IMG/VR virus record: IMGVR_UViG_2531839531_000008
Strand: one strand, 5' to 3'
Source of the DNA: a virus
Lineage: Duplodnaviria; Heunggongvirae; Uroviricota; Caudoviricetes
Length of the DNA: 55,149 nucleotides
Shown here: one piece after another, positions 20,117 to 55,149 of the stretch
Numbering within the stretch: position 1 is the stretch's first letter
Layout: the number at the start of each line of letters is the position of its first letter
Translations under genes and position numbers: made by a program
The notes under the pieces: model-generated
What the model was told of the DNA's origin: nothing
Database searches by the model: none
Seen by the model: only the letters and a program-made list of their open reading frames with translations

Positions 20117-20232
20117 GATATTACAGTGGTTTTATTTTTATGGTGTCGATTTTGATTGTTTTTTGTTCATCACTAACACCGTTTGCCTAAAGTTGTTCGC
20201 GAGATGCATGTTTAAAACATTCTGGAGCGGGT

Positions 20233-20727
20233 ATGGATCGAGAGTTAAAAAATCTGACGCTGAATATCAGTCAACTGGCGGCACTGTCAGGTGTACATCG
20301 CCAGACTGCTGCGGCAAGGCTGCAAAATCTACCCGTTGCAGGGGGGCATGAAAGCAACCTCAAGCTTTATCGGGTGGTTGATATTGTGTCGGCATTTCTG
20401 GCATTGCCACCGCCGGTTGCAGAAGGCGAAATGGACGCGCATGAGCGCAAAGCCTGGTATCAGTCTGAACGTGAGCGTCTTAAGTTCGAACAGGAAACGG
20501 CACAACTCATTCCGGCCAGTGATGTCAGACGGGAGTTTGCCATCTGGGCAAAAGCGGTCGTGCAGGTGCTGGAGACATTACCGGATATTCTGGAACGTGA
20601 CTGCGGTCTGCAGCCTGCCGCTGTGAGCCGTGTTCAGTCCATTATTGATGATCTGCGCGATCAGATAGCCCTGCGGGTGACTGAAGCAGGTGCGGATGAT
20701 GAGGAGGAATTACAGCAGGAGGAGTAA
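20233..20727 (+). CDS. terminase small subunit (Nu1/Noh-like)
   Basis: 164 aa, N-terminal wHTH-like, TAATG coupling to terL, immediately downstream of cos. Confidence 0.75.
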   Translation: MDRELKNLTLNISQLAALSGVHRQTAAARLQNLPVAGGHESNLKLYRVVDIVSAFLALPPPVAEGEMDAHERKAWYQSERERLKFEQETAQLIPASDVRREFAIWAKAVVQVLETLPDILERDCGLQPAAVSRVQSIIDDLRDQIALRVTEAGADDEEELQQEE

Positions 20728-21722
20728 TGCTGAATCAGGAAACCGCAAAGGCAGCACGAACCGATTCAGGTTATATCCTTCGCGCACCGAGACGAATGCG
20801 GGTTGCTGATGCCGTTGCTCAGTATATGCGGGTGCCCATGGGGGCAGGGAACTCAGTCCCGTGGGATCCGCTGGTGGCACCGTATGTTATTGAGCCGATG
20901 AACTGCCTGGCCTCGCGTGAATACGACGCAGTGATATTTGTTGGCCCGGCACGAACCGGCAAGACTATCGGCCTGATTGACGGCTGGGTGATTTACAACG
21001 TGATTTGCGATCCTGCTGATATGCTGATCATTCAGATGACGGAGGAAAAAGCCCGCGAACACTCCAAAAAACGACTCGCCAGAACGTTTCGCGTCAGCCC
21101 GGAAGTGGTCAGTCGCCTGAGTCCGAACAAAAATGACAACAACGTTTATGACAGAACATTCCTTGCTGGTAACTACCTGAAAATCGGCTGGCCGTCAGTC
21201 AATATCATGTCCTCATCAGATTATAAATGCGTCGCGCTGACGGATTATGACCGTTTTCCGGAAGATATTGATGGCGAGGGGGATGCTTTCTCTCTTGCCT
21301 CAAAACGTACCACCACATTTATGTCCAGCGGTATGACGCTGGTGGAGAGTTCCCCCGGCAGGGATGTGAAGGATGTGAAATGGCGACGGACTTCACCGCA
21401 TGAGGCTCCACCAACCACGGGGATCCTGTCGCTCTATAACCGTGGTGATCGCCGTCGCTGGTACTGGCCCTGTCCACACTGTGGTGAGTATTTTCAGCCC
21501 TGCGGCGATGTGGTTGCTGGTTTCCGTGATATTGCCGATCCCGTGCTGGCAAGTGAGGCGGCTTATATTCAGTGTCCTTCCTGTTCAGGACGGATTATGC
21601 CTGAACAAAAACGTGAGCTGAACGGACGTGGGGTCTGGTTGCGGGATGGTGAATCCATCAATGCGGATGGCAGTCGTTATGGTGATCCCCGACGCTCACG
21701 TATTGCGTCATTCTGGATGTAG
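20727..21722 (+). pseudogene. terminase large subunit (lambda gpA-like), N-terminal part, interrupted by satellite insertion
   Basis: 331 aa matching gpA N-terminal ATPase region incl. PCPHCGE motif; ends at TAG created at insertion junction. Confidence 0.8.
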
Positions 21723-45735: not shown

Positions 45736-48700
45736 ATGGGTAAAGGCAGCAGTAAGGGGCATACCCCGCGCGAAGCGAAGGACAACCTGAAATCCACGCA
45801 GTTGCTGAGTGTGATTGATGCCATCAGTGAAGGGCCGATTGAAGGTCCGGTGGATGGATTAAAAAGCGTGCTGCTGAACAGTACGCCGGTGCTGGACACT
45901 GAGGGGAATACCAACATCTCCGGTGTCACGGTGGTGTTCCGGGCAGGTGAGCAGGAGCAGACTCCGCCGGAGGGATTTGAATCCTCCGGCTCCGAGACGG
46001 TGCTGGGTACGGAAGTGAAATACGACACGCCGATCACCCGGACCATCACGTCTGCAAATATCGACCGTCTGCGCTTTACCTTCGGTGTGCAGGCACTGGT
46101 GGAAACCACCTCAAAGGGGGACAGGAATCCGTCGGAAGTCCGCCTGCTGGTTCAGATACAACGTAACGGTGGCTGGGTGACAGAAAAAGACATCACCATT
46201 AAGGGCAAAACCACGTCGCAGTATCTGGCCTCAGTGGTGGTGGATAACCTGCCGCCGCGCCCGTTTAATATCCGGATGCGCAGGATGACGCCGGACAGCA
46301 CCACAGACCAGCTGCAGAACAAAACGCTCTGGTCGTCATACACCGAAATTATCGATGTGAAACAGTGCTACCCGAACACGGCACTGGTCGGCGTGCAGGT
46401 GGACTCGGAGCAGTTCGGCAGCCAGCAGGTGAGCCGTAATTATCATCTGCGCGGGCGTATTCTGCAGGTGCCGTCGAATTATAACCCGCAGACGCGGCAA
46501 TACAGCGGTATCTGGGATGGAACGTTTAAACCGGCATACAGCAACAACATGGCCTGGTGTCTGTGGGATATGCTGACCCACCCGCGCTACGGCATGGGGA
46601 AACGTCTTGGTGCGGCAGATGTGGATAAATGGGCGCTGTATGTTATCGGCCACTACTGCGACCAGTCGGTGCCGGACGGCTTTGGCAGCACGGAGCCGCG
46701 CATCACCTGTAATGCCTGGCTGACCACACAGCGCAAGGCGTGGGATGTGCTCAGCGATTTCTGCTCGGCGATGCGCTGTATGCCGGTATGGAACGGGCAG
46801 ACGCTGACGTTCGTGCAGGACCGGCCATCGGATAAGGTGTGGACCTATAACCGCAGTAATGTGGTGATGCCGGATGATGGCGCGCCGTTCCGCTACAGCT
46901 TCAGCGCCCTGAAGGACCGCCATAATGCCGTTGAGGTGAACTGGATTGACCCGAATAACGGCTGGGAGACGGCGACAGAGCTTGTGGAGGACACGCAGGC
47001 CATTGCCCGTTACGGTCGTAATGTCACGAAGATGGATGCCTTTGGCTGTACCAGCCGGGGGCAGGCACACCGCGCCGGGCTGTGGCTGATTAAAACGGAA
47101 CTGCTGGAAACGCAGACCGTGGATTTCAGCGTGGGTGCTGAAGGGCTTCGCCATGTACCGGGCGATGTCATTGAAATCTGCGATGATGACTATGCCGGTA
47201 TCAGCACCGGCGGGCGCGTGCTGGCGGTGAACAGCCGGACCCGGACGCTGACGCTCGACCGTGAAATCACGCTGCCATCCTCCGGCACCACGCTGATAAG
47301 CCTGGTTGACGGAAGTGGCAATCCGGCCAGCGTGGAGGTTCAGTCCGTCACCGACGGACTTAAGGTGAAAGTGAACCGGGTTCCTGACGGCGTTGCCGGA
47401 TACAGCGTGTGGGGGCTGAAGCTGCCGACGCTGCGCCAGCGCCTGTTCCGCTGCGTGAGTATCCGTGAGAACGACGACGGCACGTATGCCATCACCGCCG
47501 TGCAGCATGTACCGGAAAAAGAAGCCATCGTGGATAACGGGGCGCACTTTGACGGCGACCAGAGCGGCACGGTGAATGGTGTCACGCCGCCAGCAGTGCA
47601 GCACCTGACTGCCGAAGTCACCGCAGACAGCGGGGAGTATCAGGTACTGGCCCGCTGGGATACGCCGAAGGTGGTGAAGGGCGTGAGCTTCCTGCTCCGT
47701 CTGACCGTAACAGCGGATGACGGCAGTGAGCGGCTGGTCAGCACGGCCCGGACGACGGAAACCACATACCGCTTCACGCAACTGGCGCTGGGGCGGTACA
47801 CGCTGACAGTCCGGGCGGTAAATGCGTGGGGACAGCAGGGCGATCCGGCATCGGTATCTTTCCGGATTGCCGCACCGGTAGCACCGTCGCGGATTGAGCT
47901 GACGCCGGGCTATTTTCAGATAACCGCCACGCCGCATCTTGCGGTTTATGATCCGACGGTACAGTTTGAGTTCTGGTTCTCGGAAAAGCGGATTACCGAT
48001 ATCAGGCAGGTTGAAACCAGCGCGCGTTATCTTGGTACGGGGCTGTACTGGATAGCTGCCAGTATCAATATCAAACCGGGCCATAATTATTATTTTTACG
48101 TTCGCAGTGTGAACACCGTTGGCAAATCGGCATTCGTGGAGGCTGTTGGTCAGCCGAGTGATGACGCATCCGGCTATCTGGATTTTTTCAAAGGCGAGAT
48201 AGGGAAAACCCATCTGGCTCAGGAGCTGTGGACGCAGATTGATAACGGTCAGCTTGCGCCTGACCTGGCTGAAATCAGGACATCCATTACGGATGTCAGC
48301 AATGAAATCACACAGACCGTCAATAAGAAACTGGAAGACCAGAGTGCAGCGATCCAGCAGATACAGAAGGTTCAGGTTGATACAAATAATAATCTGAACA
48401 GCATGTGGGCTGTGAAGCTGCAGCAGATGCAGGACGGACGCCTTTATATTGCGGGTATCGGTGCCGGTATTGAGAACACCCCCGACGGCATGCAGAGTCA
48501 GGTGCTGCTGGCGGCAGACAGGATTGCGATGATTAATCCTGCAAATGGCAACACAAAACCGATGTTTGTTGGTCAGGGTGATCAGATATTCATGAACGAC
48601 GTGTTCCTGAAACGCCTGACGGCCCCCACCATTACCAGCGGCGGTAATCCTCCGGCATTTTCCCTGACACCGGACGGGCGGCTGACGGCGAAAAATGCCG

Positions 48701-49215
48701 ATATCAGCGGTAACGTGAATGCGAACTCCGGGACGCTCAACAACGTCACGATTAACGAGAACTGTCGGGTTCTGGGAAAATTGTCCGCCAACCAGATTGA
48801 AGGCGATCTCGTTAAAACAGTGGGCAAAGCTTTCCCCCGGGACTCCCGTGCACCGGAACGGTGGCCATCAGGGACCATCACCGTCAGGGTTTATGACGAT
48901 CAGCCGTTTGACCGGCAGATTGTTATTCCGGCGGTGGCATTCAGCGGCGCTAAACATGAGCGGGAGAATAACGATATTTATTCGTCATGCCGCCTGATAG
49001 TACGGAAAAACGGTGCTGAAATTTATAACCGTACCGCGCTGGATAATACGCTGATTTACAGTGGTGTTATTGATATGCCAGCTGGTCGCGGCCACATGAC
49101 GCTGGAGTTTTCGGTGTCAGCATGGCTGGTAAATAACTGGTATCCCACAGCAAGTATCAGCGATTTGCTGGTTGTGGTGATGAAGAAAGCCACCGCAGGC
49201 ATCAGTATCAGCTGA
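45736..49215 (+). CDS. host specificity/central tail fibre protein J
   Basis: 1159 aa, lambda gpJ size and position. Confidence 0.85.
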
Positions 49216-49282
49216 ATTTTATAACCCATATACGGGCGCCAGAAATGGCGCCTTTTTTATTGCAGAAAAGCGAGAGGTAATT

Positions 49283-49882
49283 ATGCGTAAAGTTTGTGCA
49301 GCCATTTTGTCCGCAGCCATCTGTCTGGCCGTATCCGGTGCACCTGCATGGGCGTCTGAGCAGCAGGCCACACTGAGCGCAGGGTATCTTCATGCCCGTA
49401 CGAACGCTCCCGGCAGCGATAATCTGAACGGGATTAACGTGAAATACCGTTATGAGTTTACGGATACGCTGGGGCTGGTGACGTCATTCAGCTATGCAGG
49501 AGACAAGAATCGCCAGCTGACCCGTTACAGCGATACCCGCTGGCATGAAGATTCCGTGCGTAACCGCTGGTTCAGCGTGATGGCGGGGCCGTCTGTGCGC
49601 GTGAATGAATGGTTCAGCGCGTATGCGATGGCGGGTATGGCTTACAGCCGTGTTTCGACTTTCTCCGGGGATTATCTCCGCGTAACTGACAACAAGGGGA
49701 AAACGCACGATGTGCTGACCGGAAGTGATGACGGTCGCCACAGCAACACGTCTCTGGCGTGGGGGGCTGGCGTGCAGTTTAACCCGACCGAATCCGTGGC
49801 CATTGATGTCGCTTATGAAGGCTCCGGCAGTGGTTACTGGCGCACTGACGGTTTCATCGTGGGTGTCGGTTATAAATTCTGA
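49283..49882 (+). CDS. lom: Lom/Ail/PagC-family outer membrane beta-barrel protein
   Basis: 199 aa with signal peptide, ends in aromatic residue (GYKF). Confidence 0.8.
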   Translation: MRKVCAAILSAAICLAVSGAPAWASEQQATLSAGYLHARTNAPGSDNLNGINVKYRYEFTDTLGLVTSFSYAGDKNRQLTRYSDTRWHEDSVRNRWFSVMAGPSVRVNEWFSAYAMAGMAYSRVSTFSGDYLRVTDNKGKTHDVLTGSDDGRHSNTSLAWGAGVQFNPTESVAIDVAYEGSGSGYWRTDGFIVGVGYKF

Positions 49883-49908
49883 TTAGCCAGGTAACACAGT
49901 GTTATGAC

Positions 49909-49936
49909 AGCCCGCCGGTTCAGGCGGGCTTTTTTG
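49909..49936 (+). terminator. intrinsic terminator after lom
   Basis: agcccgcc-ggttca-ggcgggct followed by TTTTTT. Confidence 0.65.
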
Positions 49937-49940
49937 TGGG

Positions 49941-52900
49941 GTGAATATGGCAGTAAAGATTTCAGGTGTACTGAAAGACGGCACAGGAAAACCGGTACAG
50001 AACTGCACAATCCAGCTGAAAGCAAAACGTAACAGCACCACGGTGGTGGTGAACACGCTGGCCTCAGAAAATCCGGATGAAGCCGGGCGTTACAGCATGG
50101 ACGTTGAGTACGGTCAGTACAGCGTTATTCTGTTGGTGGAAGGATTCCCGCCGTCACATGCCGGGACCATCACCGTGTATGAAGATTCCCGACCCGGTAC
50201 GCTGAATGATTTTCTCGGTGCCATGACGGAGGATGATGCCCGTCCGGAGGCACTGCGCCGTTTTGAGCTGATGGTGGAAGAGGTGGCGCGTAACGCGTCC
50301 GCGGTGGCACAGAACACGGCAGCCGCGAAGAAGTCAGCCAGCGATGCCGGCACATCAGCCCGTGAGGCGGCAACCCATGCGACTGATGCTGCAGGCTCAG
50401 CACGTGCAGCCAGCACATCAGCCGGGCAGGCCGCGACGTCGGCTCAGTCAGCGTCTTCCAGCGCAGGAACGGCATCAACAAAGGCTACTGAAGCATCAAA
50501 AAGTGCTGCCGCTGCAGAGTCCTCAAAAAGCGCGGCGGCTACCAGTGCCGGTGCGGCGAAAACGTCAGAAACGAATGCCGCAGCGTCACAACAATCAGCA
50601 GCCACTTCTGCATCCACCGCGACCACGAAAGCGTCAGAAGCTGCCACCTCAGCCCGGGATGCGGCGGCCTCAAAAGAGGCAGCGAAATCATCAGAAACGA
50701 ACGCATCCTCGAGCGCCAGTAGTGCCGCTTCCTCGGCAACGGCGGCAGGAAATTCCGCGAAGGCGGCAAAAACGTCCGAGGCGAACGCCAGGTCTTCTGA
50801 GACGGCTGCGGGACAGAGCGCCTCAGCTGCGGCAGGCTCAAAAACAGCGGCTGCGTCGTCTGCCAGTACCGCGTCAACAAGTGCCGGGCAGGCCTCAGCC
50901 AGTGCCACCGCCGCCGGAAAATCGGCAGAAAGTGCCGCATCGTCTGCTTCAACAGCCACAACGAAGGCTGGCGAAGCCACTGAACAGGCCAGCGCAGCAG
51001 CGAGGTCAGCTTCCGCAGCGAAGACATCCGAAACGAACGCGAAAGCGTCGGAAACCAGCGCAGAATCCTCAAAAACGGCTGCCGCATCGTCCGCCAGTTC
51101 GGCGGCGTCATCGGCATCATCTGCGTCTGCTTCAAAAGATGAGGCGACCAGACAGGCGTCAGCAGCGAGGGGCAGCGCCACGACGGCATCCACGAAAGCA
51201 ACAGAGGCGGCAGGCAGTGCGACGGCAGCATCTCAGAGCAAAACTGCTGCTGAATCCGCTGCGACCCGTGCGGAAGCTGCTGCTGATCGTGCTGAAGAGA
51301 TTGCCGGTGCAGTTGCGATGGAAGACGCAAGCCTTACAACTAAAGGTGTTGTGAAACTTAGCAGTGCTGTTGATAGCACCAGTGAATCGCTGGCCGCAAC
51401 GCCAAAAGCAGTTAAAGCAGCCAATGACAATGCGAATAGCAGGGTGCCATCTAACCGAAAAGTTAACGGTAAAGCACTGACTGCGGATATCACTTTAACC
51501 GCCGCGCATGTGGCTGCTTTTGCCAGAAGGGCAACGGATACGTATGCCGATGCGGATGGTGGCGTTCCCTGGAATGCCGAATCAGGCGCTTACAATGTCA
51601 CCCGCTCTGGCGACAGCTATATTCTGGTTAACTTCTATACCGGAGTCGGAAGTTGCCGGACCCTGCAGATGAAGGCGCATTACAGAAATGGTGGTCTGTT
51701 CTACCGTTCTTCAAGAGACGGTTATGGTTTTGAAAGTGGTTGGGAGCAGGTTTACACGACTGGATTTAGACCTCAGCCGGCTGATATAAACGCACCAACC
51801 GCTGCCGCCGGATGGTTAAATAGTGGTAACGGAACAGCATTTACGACTGCTCAGTTTATAACGTGGCTAAATAATCAGGGTGCATTTTCAAACAAATATT
51901 GGATTGCACGGTGCTCATGGGCTTACGCCAACAATAATTATATAGACGACACTGGTTGCGGTAGGATCGATCTATCTGGTTCCGTGATTGAGGTGTTTAG
52001 TAATAAGGCAACAAGCAATTACACTATTCGTGTTACAACGACAACAACATCGGGTCATGGTGGTGTTAATAATGCGGAATTTATTTATGTGTACAATGGA
52101 AGTGGTTATGCACCAGGCTGGCGTCGTTCTTATAACACCAGAAACAAACCAACAGCTTCTGATGTAGGAGCATTACCGCTTTCAGGTGGCACATTATCTG
52201 GGGGGGTAACGTCTTCTGGTGAGATCGTTTCAAAATATGCAAATGGTTTCCGCATTGCTTACGGTAACTATGGGTTCTTTATCCGTAATGACGGCGGCAG
52301 CACATATTTCATGCTAACAGCATCAGGAGATACGTTAGGTTCATGGAACAGTTTGCGACCGATTACAATTAATAATACCAGCGGTGTTGTGTCCATTGGT
52401 AATGGACTAAATGTTACTGGTGGCGTTAATGGTAGTTTGAACGGTAATGCTTCAACAGCTACGAAGTTGCAAACAGCGAGAAACATCAATGGTGTTAAGT
52501 TTGATGGCTCAGGCGATATCAACATTAATACATTGGTATCTCGTGGCCGAGTTACGGCGTTAAGCGGCTCTACTCAAGGCACTGCTGGCATTCAAATGTA
52601 CGAGGCGTACAACAATAGCTACCCGACCATGTATGGCAACGTATTGCACATGAAAGGTGCGAGTGCTGCTGGTGAGGGCGAGTTGCTTATTGGCTGGAGT
52701 GGTACGAGCGGTGCACATGCGCCAGTTTTCATTCGCTCACGAAGAGATAACACAGATGCGGCATGGTCGCCGTGGGCGCAGCTTTACACCTCGGCTCATC
52801 CTCCTGCAGAGTTTTATCCAGTCGGTGCACCAATCCCGTGGCCATCAGATACCGTTCCGTTTGGTTATGCCCTGATGCATGGGCAGACTTTTGACAAATC

Positions 52901-53519
52901 TGCATACCCGAAACTTGCAGCCGCTTATCCGTCAGGCGTGATCCCTGATATGCGTGGCTGGACGATTAAGGGCAAACCTGCCAGTGGTCGAGCCGTATTA
53001 TCTCAGGAACAGGACGGCATTAAATCGCACACCCACAGCGCCAGCGCATCCAGTACGGATTTGGGGACGAAAACCACATCGTCGTTTGATTACGGCACTA
53101 AATCCACGAATAACACCGGGGCGCATACGCACAGTCTGAGTGGCTCTACGGGGTCTGCCGGTGTTCATACTCATGGTAATGGTATTCGTTGGCCAGGAGG
53201 CGGCGGTTCTGCGTTAGCATTTTATGATGGCGGTGGGTTCACTTATGTCCAGAATTCACAGTATCAAGTAAGCCCGGAGACTTCTTCCTATAGATCGTAT
53301 TATCAACGTATTCAGACACAGTCAGCAGGTGCTCATACCCACTCGCTGTCTGGTACTGCAGCAAGTTCTGGCGCACATGCACATACTGTAGGTATTGGTG
53401 CGCATACGCACTCCGTTGCGATTGGTTCACATGGACACACCATCACCGTTAACGCTGCGGGTAACGCGGAAAACACCGTCAAAAACATCGCATTTAACTA
53501 TATTGTGAGGCTTGCATAA
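49941..53519 (+). CDS. stf: side tail fibre protein Stf with Ala/Ser/Thr-rich tandem repeats and GxHxH repeats
   Basis: 1192 aa; long low-complexity repeat tract 50280-51300; C-terminal GAHTHS repeats. Confidence 0.8.
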
Positions 53520-54103
53520 TGGCATTCAGAATGAGTGAACAAGCACGGACCATAAAAATTTATAATCTGCTGGCCGGAACTAATGAATTTATTGGTGAAG
53601 GTGACGCATATATTCCGCCTCATACAGGTCTGCCAGCAAACAGTACCGATATTGCACCACCAGATATTCCTGCTGGCTTTGTGGCTGTTTTCAACAGTGA
53701 TGAGGCATCGTGGCATCTCGTTGAAGACCATCGGGGTAAAACGGTTTATGACGTAGCTTCCGGCGACGCGTTATTTATTTCTGAACTCGGCTTGTTACCG
53801 GAAAATGTTACCTGGTTATCGCCGGAAGGGGAGTTTCAGAAGTGGAACGGCACAGCCTGGGTGAAGGATACGGAAGCAGAAAAACTGTTCCAGATCCGGG
53901 AGGCGGAAGAAACAAAAAACAACCTGATGCAGGTAGCCAGTGAGCATATTGCGCCGCTTCAGGATGCTGCAGATCTGGAAATTGCAACGGAGGAAGAAAC
54001 CTCATTGCTGGAAGCCTGGAAGAAGTATCGGGTGTTGCTGAACCGTGTTGATACATCAACTGCACCTGATATTGAGTGGCCTACGAACCCTGTCAGGGAG
54101 TAA
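53519..54103 (+). CDS. tfa: tail fibre assembly protein Tfa
   Basis: 194 aa, ATGA-coupled to stf. Confidence 0.75.
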
Positions 54104-54116
54104 TCATTGGGGTTAT

Positions 54117-54166
54117 GCCGCAGCACGTCTTAAGCAAAAACGTGCTGCGGTTGGATGCTATTTTTT
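54117..54166. terminator. bidirectional terminator between tfa and convergent methyltransferase gene
   Basis: 10-bp perfect stem ccgcagcacg/cgtgctgcgg, T-run on plus strand, A-run before stem. Confidence 0.6.
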
Positions 54167-54826
54167 CCCTGAAGCGGAAAACATTACTACAGTACCTTGA
54201 ACCTTGGTTTTAACATTCTCGAAATGCTCTGAGAGTATATGTGTTAAGCCTTCTTCGGAATCTTTTGTGTTTGAAAAGATGCCTTTCTGATTGTAAATGC
54301 GCATCAGTTTTTGACCGAAGCTATTGTGCACAACTCCATCGCCAAGAATTGTGGCTCCGTATAGAGTTCCATCGTCAGTTAAGGCCTGCGCCGCATTGCG
54401 TATTACACAGCTTTTTGTAGATATATTTCCAGGCAGGCAGTGAAGAAGGTAAAACATGGAAATGGAATCAAATTGACCATGTAACGCCGCGGGATAAGGT
54501 TCAAAAACATCATGGCTAATTTTATGTTTAATTTTTGATTCCCCAGCCCTTGTAGATGCCGCGTTCAGGCTAGCTTCGTTCAAATCCATTAAAGATATCA
54601 GACTACTCTCAGGTACGTGAGTAAGGTAAAACCCAGTTCCAACACCAATATCCAGATGGTTGTTACCTAAATGTTCCAGAAAGTGTGGAAGAAGGTGTTC
54701 CTTTGTAGGACATCCCCATGCAAGCCGATTTGATACTCCCAAAACCCACCAGTCATAAAGCTTTAGGGTAAGTGGTGTGTAAATTTTAGCCCCATCATCT
54801 GTGTTTTTTTTCATTGATTTCACCAT
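54158..54826 (-). CDS. class I SAM-dependent methyltransferase, moron (resembles e14 YmfD as recalled)
   Basis: 222 aa; motif I DIGVGTGF; AT-rich; convergent to tail fibre genes. Confidence 0.6.
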   Translation of the reverse strand: MVKSMKKNTDDGAKIYTPLTLKLYDWWVLGVSNRLAWGCPTKEHLLPHFLEHLGNNHLDIGVGTGFYLTHVPESSLISLMDLNEASLNAASTRAGESKIKHKISHDVFEPYPAALHGQFDSISMFYLLHCLPGNISTKSCVIRNAAQALTDDGTLYGATILGDGVVHNSFGQKLMRIYNQKGIFSNTKDSEEGLTHILSEHFENVKTKVQGTVVMFSASGKK

Positions 54827-54882
54827 GTTATAGTTTTATTTGTGAATTAAATCAATTATGGCGATGAATTACAAGGGGTTAA

Positions 54883-55149
54883 ATGCTGCCGCAGCATAGC
54901 GATATTGAAATAGCCTGGTATGCTTCGATACAGCAGGAGCCGAATGGCTGGAAGACCGTCACCACACAGTTCTACATCCAGGAATTCAGTGAGTATATTG
55001 CGCCACTGCAGGATGCTGTAGATCTGGAAATCGCAACGGAGGAAGAAAGATCGTTGCTGGAGGCATGGAATAAATATCGGGTATTGTTGAATCGTGTTGA
55101 TACATCAACTGCACCTGATATTGAGTGGCCGACTTCACCTGCAGAGTAA
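54883..55149 (+). CDS. short Tfa-like protein sharing only the C-terminal 45 aa with tfa
   Basis: 88-aa ORF ending in TAA at window edge; C-terminus [43 protein letters not shown] shared with 53519-54103. Confidence 0.5.

Follow-up and report, generated by a model that had tools for sequence, protein, structure and literature searches.

The Ala/Ser/Thr-rich tract of about 1 kb in the stf gene of a tailed-phage genome (IMG/VR record IMGVR_UViG_2531839531_000008; the whole 55,149-nt stretch was analysed, hereafter the window) is very probably the proximal α-helical coiled-coil rod of a lambdoid side tail fibre, in the length class of Rac StfR. It matches the proximal trimeric coiled-coil domain of Ur-lambda gpStf, and is in that respect already known and ordinary (PMC12617516). 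The original prediction had placed such a tract at 50280-51300 and had described it as degenerate low-complexity repeats. Its position holds to within a few bases (50277-51305 as measured) and the tract is indeed repetitive, but the description was incomplete: the tract is a phase-perfect heptad repeat.

As listed, the ORF spans 49941..53519 on the plus strand (1192 aa), with the true start probably at the ATG at 49947 (MAVKISG...) rather than at 49941; GGGGTGA lies upstream of this ATG, and homologues align from query residue 3. That the gene encodes a side tail fibre, as first supposed, is borne out in three ways: by its phage_tail_N domain (PF08400; Stf residues 3-136, E = 1.7e-71, 238.9 bits against a Pfam cutoff of 26.6), by a match in the PDB sequence search of its N-terminal collar domain, StfN, to residues 1-94 of the 'Tail fiber protein' of 9e7m/9mgh (E = 2.3e-51), and by the gene order J - lom - stf - tfa, a lambdoid tail module identical in order to that of lambda. 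J (45736-49215) carries six gpJ Pfam domains and lom (49283-49882) an Ail_Lom domain (E = 2.7e-118). Directly 3' of stf on the plus strand, tfa (53519..54103; Caudo_TAP, E = 1.1e-44) encodes the tail fibre assembly chaperone, the partner of the distal end of Stf.

Within stf, all on the plus strand, StfN (49947..50228; residues 3-96), which docks the fibre on the tail, is followed by a linker in which the predicted helix starts, at about residue 100 (50229..50276; residues 97-112), then by the tract itself (50277..51305; residues 113-455), which consists of 49 uninterrupted heptads, and then by the predicted end of the helix, at about residue 478, together with a conserved junction motif before the hinge (51306..51374). 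The remainder (51375..53519) is a mosaic distal fibre with the receptor-binding end: Mu S-like, T4 gp34-like and, at the tip, T4 gp37-like with HxH repeats. Pfam domains here are Gp34_trimer at Stf 711-810 and Collar at Stf 962-1009, and the PDB sequence matches are 8ju3 (query 615-744), 4uxe/5nxh (745-835) and the T4 gp37 tip 2xgf (958-1192, E = 7.6e-81). The N-domain, the gene order, a coiled-coil segment after the N-domain, and a gp37-type distal part with tfa, by which a lambdoid side tail fibre is recognized, are all present.

Between Stf residues ~120 and 450, the Ala+Ser+Thr fraction in 30-residue windows rises from ~0.2-0.3 to 0.63-0.83. Residues 113-455 contain 38% Ala, 23% Ser and 12% Thr, a sum of 73% against 31% in the remaining Stf; among these 343 residues are 13 Gly, three Leu/Ile/Val/Met, no Pro and no aromatic residue. 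The tract is GC-rich, as had been noted (0.62 versus 0.50 for the whole window). AAKTSETNA occurs twice, as the original prediction would have it, and TSE.NA three times; the other motif it named, SAAAS, is literally absent from the tract, which has only SAAA and AAAS (four times each). Such a composition, nearly without large hydrophobics, in a region (Stf 137-710) without any Pfam domain, could be that of an intrinsically disordered, low-complexity tether of flexible Ala/Ser/Thr sequence rather than of a structured rod. We consider this extremely improbable, on account of the strict phase of the repeat and the complete lack of Pro, together with the selective conservation, whole-heptad indels and continuous predicted helix described below. 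Residue autocorrelation is highest at lag 7 (z = 10.8 against composition-preserving shuffles) and peaks at all multiples of 7 through lag 56 (z = 7.8-9.5), and the register table has no stutter or phase shift across the 49 heptads. The consensus heptad is (T/S)-x-A-x-(T/S)-S-A, in which one position is all but invariably Ala (46/47, a), with Ser three residues on (37/47, d) and Ala at +4 (33/47, e); we infer the a/d/e labelling of these three small-residue positions over d/g/a.

The same three of the seven positions are selectively conserved, which is again unexpected of a tether. Among 71 alleles, a, d and e vary in 5-7 of the 49 heptads and the remaining positions in 17-25. In the same alleles, third positions of stf codons account for 231 of the 356 polymorphic sites, and the A/S/A signature is retained in homologues with N-domain identity of just 52-59%. 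Selection therefore acts on the heptad pattern, not on the sequence itself.

The structural prediction agrees with a rod. In an AF2 run of a 386-residue segment as a single-sequence monomer (mean pLDDT 71, pTM 0.29), DSSP assigned a single, continuous helix to segment residues 6-384, that is, Stf ~100-478, with confidence dipping near segment residues 170 and 290-305. The tract thus combines the heptad (lag 7) periodicity and the α-helical secondary structure of a coiled coil, but it fails to present canonical Leu/Ile/Val at the a/d core, the core-like positions being Ala, Ser and Ala. It behaves as an atypical coiled coil with a small-residue core, not as one of the canonical leucine-zipper type. 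With so few Leu/Ile/Val/Met residues (3/343), the stability of the isolated coiled coil is not self-evident, and flanking domains may contribute to it.

The PDB sequence search found no solved structure covering the rod, StfN alone being represented. For the Ur-lambda gpStf trimer, residues 1-91 form the collar, 92-101 a flexible linker, 102-393 the proximal coiled-coil domain and 394-422 a hinge (Yu et al. 2025, PMC12617516). In cryo-EM, 12 of its N-domains make a dodecameric collar at the gpV/gpM junction, and the proximal segment is a rigid body in cryo-ET, a further point against a disordered tether; the lambda rod itself is an AlphaFold3 model fitted into cryo-ET density, not an atomic-resolution structure (PMC12617516). 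By homology with lambda, the rod considered here would likewise be a parallel trimer and act as a spacer. Three Stf chains, anchored to the tail by their N-terminal collar domains, would form a parallel α-helical coiled coil of ~50-56 nm. In each heptad, the inward face would carry the invariant Ala at a and, in most cases, Ser at d and Ala at e, with the polar Ser/Thr/Lys/Glu residues pointing outward. The product would be a thin, soluble and fairly stiff spacer that keeps the exchangeable, receptor-binding distal part off the tail and makes adsorption faster.

The tract shares gene position, heptad phase and junction motif with that of Ur-lambda Stf (Yu et al. 2025, Sci Adv, PMC12617516), and the N-domain is 91% identical to those of lambda-derived loci. 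The two tracts align throughout except for one block; the extra 105 aa here are exactly 15 heptads, corresponding to ~15.5 nm of helix at ~0.148 nm/residue, and distal to Stf residue ~520 the two proteins are different mosaics. The length class is instead that of StfR of the E. coli K-12 Rac prophage, and DNA identity with annotated stfR genes is 93-95% over 983-1028 nt, although the distal domains of StfR, and of the E. coli 'prophage tail fiber N-terminal domain-containing proteins', are unlike those here.

Two further systems bear comparison. The proximal half-fibre of phage T7 gp17 is regarded as a triple coiled coil. Its shaft (~172-267) gave the sole PDB sequence match to the tract, a marginal one (E = 0.04) that does not establish homology; the match is ungapped, so that the heptad register is shared, and motifs such as SAGNSA.AA..SE.NA are common to both. 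The T7 shaft is far shorter and has more charged and large residues. In alanine-zipper and Alacoil structures (e.g., the Ala-rich part of E. coli Lpp-56), the small Ala core allows unusually close helix packing; Alacoils are antiparallel, and the Ala-rich segments of such coils run for just a few heptads. The tract, by contrast, keeps its Ala/Ser core through 49 consecutive heptads, its helices presumably form a parallel trimer, and it has no sequence relationship to these proteins. We found no publication that spells out the A-x-x-S-A heptad signature: Yu et al. 2025 (PMC12617516) do not use the word 'heptad' in their main text, and a literature search on alanine-rich coiled-coil tail fibres gave no match.

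Repetition far above chance exists at the protein level only, and the underlying DNA does not form a tandem repeat. TRF, the check proposed with the original prediction, found essentially no array in the tract, only 18 nt of a 9-mer array (51103-51121). The short repeat families picked up by a repeat search share 60-88% identity and mostly recur at multiples of 21 nt, and exact internal repeats reach 12 nt at most. By all three measures, head-to-tail DNA units of high identity are absent. An Rfam search of 49000-55149 returned nothing within the tract.

The second proposed check was of stf length among relatives, the tract having been called prone to recombination and length variation. For tract-length comparisons we used as distal anchor the motif KG[IV]V[KQ]LSS, which is kept in lambda, Salmonella and further family members. 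The anchor-to-anchor distance is 356 aa in 78 of 82 close homologues (DNA identity 86-99.9%), so frequent length polymorphism is not seen among close relatives. Length does vary among lineages, with anchor-to-anchor distances of 114-367 aa in the wider family, and it does so in whole heptads: the length classes of 150, 164, 255, 262 and 367 aa, equal modulo 7, hold 18 of the 21 family representatives in a comparison built on related loci and a representative library, the N-domain protein search having given only fragments of <200 aa.

This spread of length classes, the degenerate direct repeats at multiples of 21 nt, and a 4-aa TSAS duplication in one homologue (L009) are what might be expected of a contingency-type hypervariable repeat, in which slippage or unequal crossing-over often changes the length of the fibre. 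We judge that explanation very unlikely, because the tandem array is so limited, because RecA could not efficiently drive unequal exchange across exact repeats as short as these (≤12 nt), and because the close homologues are nearly all of equal length despite heavy recombination between alleles. Of 5426 complete E. coli genomes, 4117 carry the tract. At least 80% of it is covered at one place in 3730 of 4256 matching E. coli records, and among the E. coli matches listed each is a single ungapped piece; the tract is therefore not hypervariable.

The claim of recombination itself stands, since stf alleles are heavily shuffled (Rm at least 58), but the recombination is equal homologous exchange between alleles, not slippage inside the tract, and is joined by module swapping downstream. 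The similarity shared with other Stf proteins is interrupted at residues ~500-553 and ~716-776, and these breakpoints between conserved and swapped parts cluster just 3' of the tract. The full stf-tfa combination of the window was found at ≥80% coverage in one of 5426 E. coli genomes.

The tract is overlapped by several long ORFs on both strands, which had been considered spurious from the start. They lie at 50344-51354 on the plus strand (336 aa, +1 frame, Arg/Pro/Gln-rich) and, on the minus strand, at 50444-51193 (249 aa, frame -1), 50539-51330 (263 aa, frame -2), 50114-50416, 50170-50481 and 51233-51493. That one of the long ones, e.g., 50539-51330 or 50444-51193, is a real overlapping gene has two points in its favour. 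The reference annotation of lambda has orf206b (20147-20767, minus strand) within the corresponding tract, the counterpart of 50444-51193, and the stop-free run of frame -2 spans 254 codons, whereas synonymous shuffles give 89 +/- 28 and 0/2000 of them reach the observed length. The other two frames are as expected: the +1 frame is open in 100% of the shuffles, so that the amino-acid sequence itself forces its openness, and the 262 stop-free codons of frame -1 are close to the 258 +/- 61 expected from composition. For frame -2, the null took no account of codon-junction context, and genes of the window generally avoid CT|A at codon junctions (NCT before A-starting codons 11% versus 24%, odds ratio 0.39, p = 5e-11); the excess openness of this frame follows from that depletion. 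In a set of 75 homologous tracts, frames +1, -1 and -2 are interrupted by stops scattered over many positions, and the frame -2 ORF is broken at ~20 different ones. No ORF stays intact across homologues or has frame-specific constraint: polymorphic sites fall mostly at the third positions of stf codons, and the translations are Arg/Pro/Leu/Trp-rich nonsense. We accordingly rejected the frame -2 ORF as a gene, on the general CT|A avoidance and the scattered stops, and hold that any of these ORFs is almost certainly not a gene. They arise because GC-rich, T-poor codons for Ala, Ser and Thr leave the other frames stop-free by accident, and the three longest are spurious as first suspected.

These results leave current understanding unchanged. 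Annotations should describe the tract as the Stf proximal coiled-coil rod and should leave the nested ORFs uncalled, among them the one that corresponds to lambda's historical orf206b. A more speculative reading, which we think doubtful, is that the Ala/Ser/Ala stripe over 49 heptads marks a distinct, unusually thin, parallel trimeric coil that needs clamping at both ends to be stable, and whose length is tuned in whole heptads to how deep an O-antigen or capsule layer on the host the distal tip has to cross. If that were true, rod length would be a determinant of host range in addition to the receptor-binding tip. The N-terminal part of lambda STF retains its function in fusions with foreign C-terminal parts (PMC11338833), and the length classes, quantised in heptads, offer a simple design rule for chimeric fibres of varied reach. 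In E. coli prophages, the N-domain and rod together form a near-universal, recombining adapter module, onto which differing receptor-binding tips are grafted just 3' of the tract.

The window ends in a lambdoid tail module, comprising J (45736-49215, +; six gpJ Pfam domains), lom (49283-49882, +; Ail_Lom), stf (49941-53519, +; 1192 aa as listed) and tfa (53519-54103, +; Caudo_TAP). The true stf start is likely the ATG at 49947, rather than the GTG at 49941 of the ORF list, since alignments to homologues begin at residue 3 and GGGGTGA closely precedes this ATG. At 49920-49950, just after lom and directly before the stf ribosome-binding site, a G+C-rich segment leads into six consecutive T (GGCGGGCTTTTTTG). 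Pfam places a 'prophage tail fibre N-terminal' domain (N-domain) at Stf residues 3-136 (E = 1.7e-71), Gp34_trimer at 711-810 and Collar at 962-1009. The original prediction of an Ala/Ser/Thr-rich tract at 50280-51300 was accurate: the Ala+Ser+Thr fraction per 30-residue window climbs to 0.63-0.83 at Stf residues ~120-450, and residues 113-455 (50277-51305) are 38% Ala, 23% Ser and 12% Thr, totalling 73% vs. 31% in the remaining Stf. These residues include no Pro, aromatic residue or Cys and only three Leu/Ile/Val/Met; the DNA has a GC fraction of 0.62 vs. 0.50 for the window and is strongly A-over-T skewed. Of the two motifs that had been quoted for the tract, AAKTSETNA occurs twice and SAAAS has no literal occurrence.

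Residue autocorrelation of the tract peaked sharply at lag 7 (z = 10.8 vs. shuffles) and again at all multiples of 7 up to lag 56 (z = 7.8-9.5), with troughs between. With the tract arranged seven residues to a line, Ala fills one column in 46 of the 47 lines, the column at +3 from it is Ser in 37, and that at +4 is Ala in 33 and otherwise Lys or Glu; in this register there is no stutter or skip across the ~49 heptads. AlphaFold2 (Stf 95-480, single sequence) predicted one unbroken helix over residues 100-478, at a mean pLDDT of 71. The large hydrophobic core of a canonical coiled coil is lacking, the inward positions being Ala/Ser/Ala, which presumably resembles alanine-zipper or Alacoil packing. 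Tandem Repeats Finder, proposed as a check, returned only one 18-nt array, while a repeat search of the tract DNA found short families that are 60-88% identical, with intervals that are mostly multiples of 21 nt; the longest exact internal repeat is 12 nt. With strict heptads in the protein and irregular DNA, the repetition is a structural periodicity kept by selection, not recent DNA amplification. In relatives whose N-domain identity is as low as 52-59%, the tract sequence differs considerably, but position +0 is still at least 85% Ala (94-100% in every relative except one), and Ser is kept at +3 and Ala/Glu at +4. Among 71 distinct tract alleles of equal length (mutually 86-99.9% identical), polymorphism affects the three positions that face inward in 5, 7 and 5 of 49 heptads and the other four in 17-25 of 49, and 231 of the 356 polymorphic nucleotide sites fall at third codon positions of the stf frame.

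The N-domain matches residues 1-94 of PDB 9e7m/9mgh (E = 2.3e-51), the sole solved piece of Ur-lambda Stf. Ur-lambda gpStf is a trimer whose parts include a collar domain (1-91), a proximal coiled-coil domain (102-393), a hinge (394-422) and a distal part, and its proximal segment behaves as a rigid body in cryo-ET (Yu et al. 2025, PMC12617516). Every testable defining feature of the lambdoid Stf/StfR family was found here, and this Stf is a member. Lambda Stf aligns throughout the tract except for one extra 105-residue block in the window's tract, exactly 15 heptads or ~15.5 nm of helix. Among the matches listed, annotated stfR genes match the tract over 983-1028 nt at 93-95% identity without gaps. 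In the PDB, only the T7 gp17 shaft region matches the tract, in a weak but gapless alignment (E = 0.04). We identify the tract as the proximal coiled-coil rod of the side tail fibre; its length class is that of K-12 Rac StfR.

Long overlapping ORFs on both strands, at 50344-51354 (+), 50444-51193 (-) and 50539-51330 (-), are present as described. Relative to stf, frame +1 is open across the whole tract, as in 100% of synonymous shuffles, and the stop-free run of 262 codons in frame -1 matches the 258 ± 61 of shuffles. The 254-codon run in frame -2 exceeds the shuffled value (89 ± 28; 0 of 2000 reach 254), which raised the candidacy of this ORF as a gene. A stop arises in this frame only where NCT, NTT or NTC precedes an A-initial codon, and just two of the tract's 38 NCT, NTT and NTC codons stand in that context. 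A-starting codons follow NCT in 5% of tract cases vs. 31% after NCA/NCC/NCG, and in the window's other genes in 11% vs. 24% (odds ratio 0.39, P = 5e-11); TA occurs five times in the tract (rho 0.16 vs. 0.72 in the window). This avoidance of CT before A lengthens one antisense frame. Stops in frames +1, -1 and -2 fall at many differing positions across 75 distinct tract sequences from homologues. We therefore reject the frame -2 ORF as a gene, CT|A depletion being general in the window and stops scattered among homologues; all the overlapping ORFs are by-products of composition, spurious as had been proposed, although the lambda reference record still lists one as orf206b.

The suggestion that the tract varies in length holds between lineages but not among close relatives. 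Between the two anchors that flank the tract, the distal one being the junction motif KG[IV]V[KQ]LSS, the distance is 356 aa in 78 of 82 close homologues (IMG/VR and GTDB loci). The only non-heptad length change among these relatives is a four-residue TSAS duplication inside the rod at Stf residues ~222-225 (IMGVR_UViG_2850808358_000003, locus L009), a change that would offset the heptads as a coiled-coil stutter does. In the 21 family representatives with both anchors, distances were 114, 150, 164, 255, 262 or 367 aa, equal modulo 7 in 18 representatives and five of the six length classes; in more distant members the tract ends between ~residue 160 and ~455, largely in one phase. Length is thus heptad-quantised between lineages and stable among close relatives.

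Downstream of tfa, a minus-strand ORF (54158-54826) resembles class I SAM-dependent methyltransferases, and past it a second tfa C-terminal fragment (54883-55149; 80% identity over 60 aa to tfa residues 132-191 of 194) runs off the window; the ORF looks like a cargo gene inserted between one tail-fibre cassette and what is left of an earlier one, a layout also annotated in E. coli NCCP 13717. Rfam IS009 (RF02111) matches 53862-54060 (+; 225 bits, gathering score 117), wholly within the 3' part of the tfa CDS. Among proteins matching the N-domain (49941-50500; P0001-P0120), thousands are 'partial' Stf fragments of 100-200 aa ending soon after it (clusters of, e.g., 1804 and 1734 members); breaks in draft assemblies at or within this multi-copy tract are the evident cause. 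Lambda-like stf N-domains (91% identity) also occur on low-coverage contigs, some ~48.5 kb (loci L085-L102 and others), in assemblies of unrelated bacteria, e.g. Pseudomonas, Shewanella, Leeuwenhoekiella, Neobacillus, Kitasatospora, Bradyrhizobium and Vibrio; phage lambda control DNA has apparently contaminated these public genome assemblies.

Proneness to recombination, also predicted, proved intense: 11184 of 25200 informative site pairs among tract alleles fail the four-gamete test, and within 1068 nt the Hudson-Kaplan bound requires at least 58 events. Most points at which similarity to other Stf proteins is lost lie either shortly past the tract (residues ~500-553) or at 716-776; two lie inside it. 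The distal Stf (51375-53519) is a mosaic of a Mu S-like segment (residues 615-744), one that resembles T4 gp34 (745-835) and a tip (958-1192) that resembles T4 gp37 and carries HxH repeats. Of 5426 complete E. coli genomes, 4117 carry the tract, with as many as seven places in a single genome, and only one carries the whole stf-tfa combination at ≥80% coverage (NCCP 13717, 97.4%).

The tract is real and correctly located; as a feature it is already known in kind, and E. coli prophages very commonly have it. Our additions are descriptive: a strict heptad signature (A-x-x-S-A), length classes quantised in heptads, and the finding that none of the nested ORFs is a gene. Lambda side fibres accelerate adsorption (PMC12617516), and the N-terminal part of lambda STF tolerates foreign C-terminal parts (PMC11338833). 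By analogy with lambda, the tract may act as a thin spacer for the receptor-binding tip. Together, its prevalence, length stability, similarity breaks and the rarity of the full stf-tfa combination show that N-domain plus rod is a conserved adapter module of shared homology, the recipient of swapped tips.
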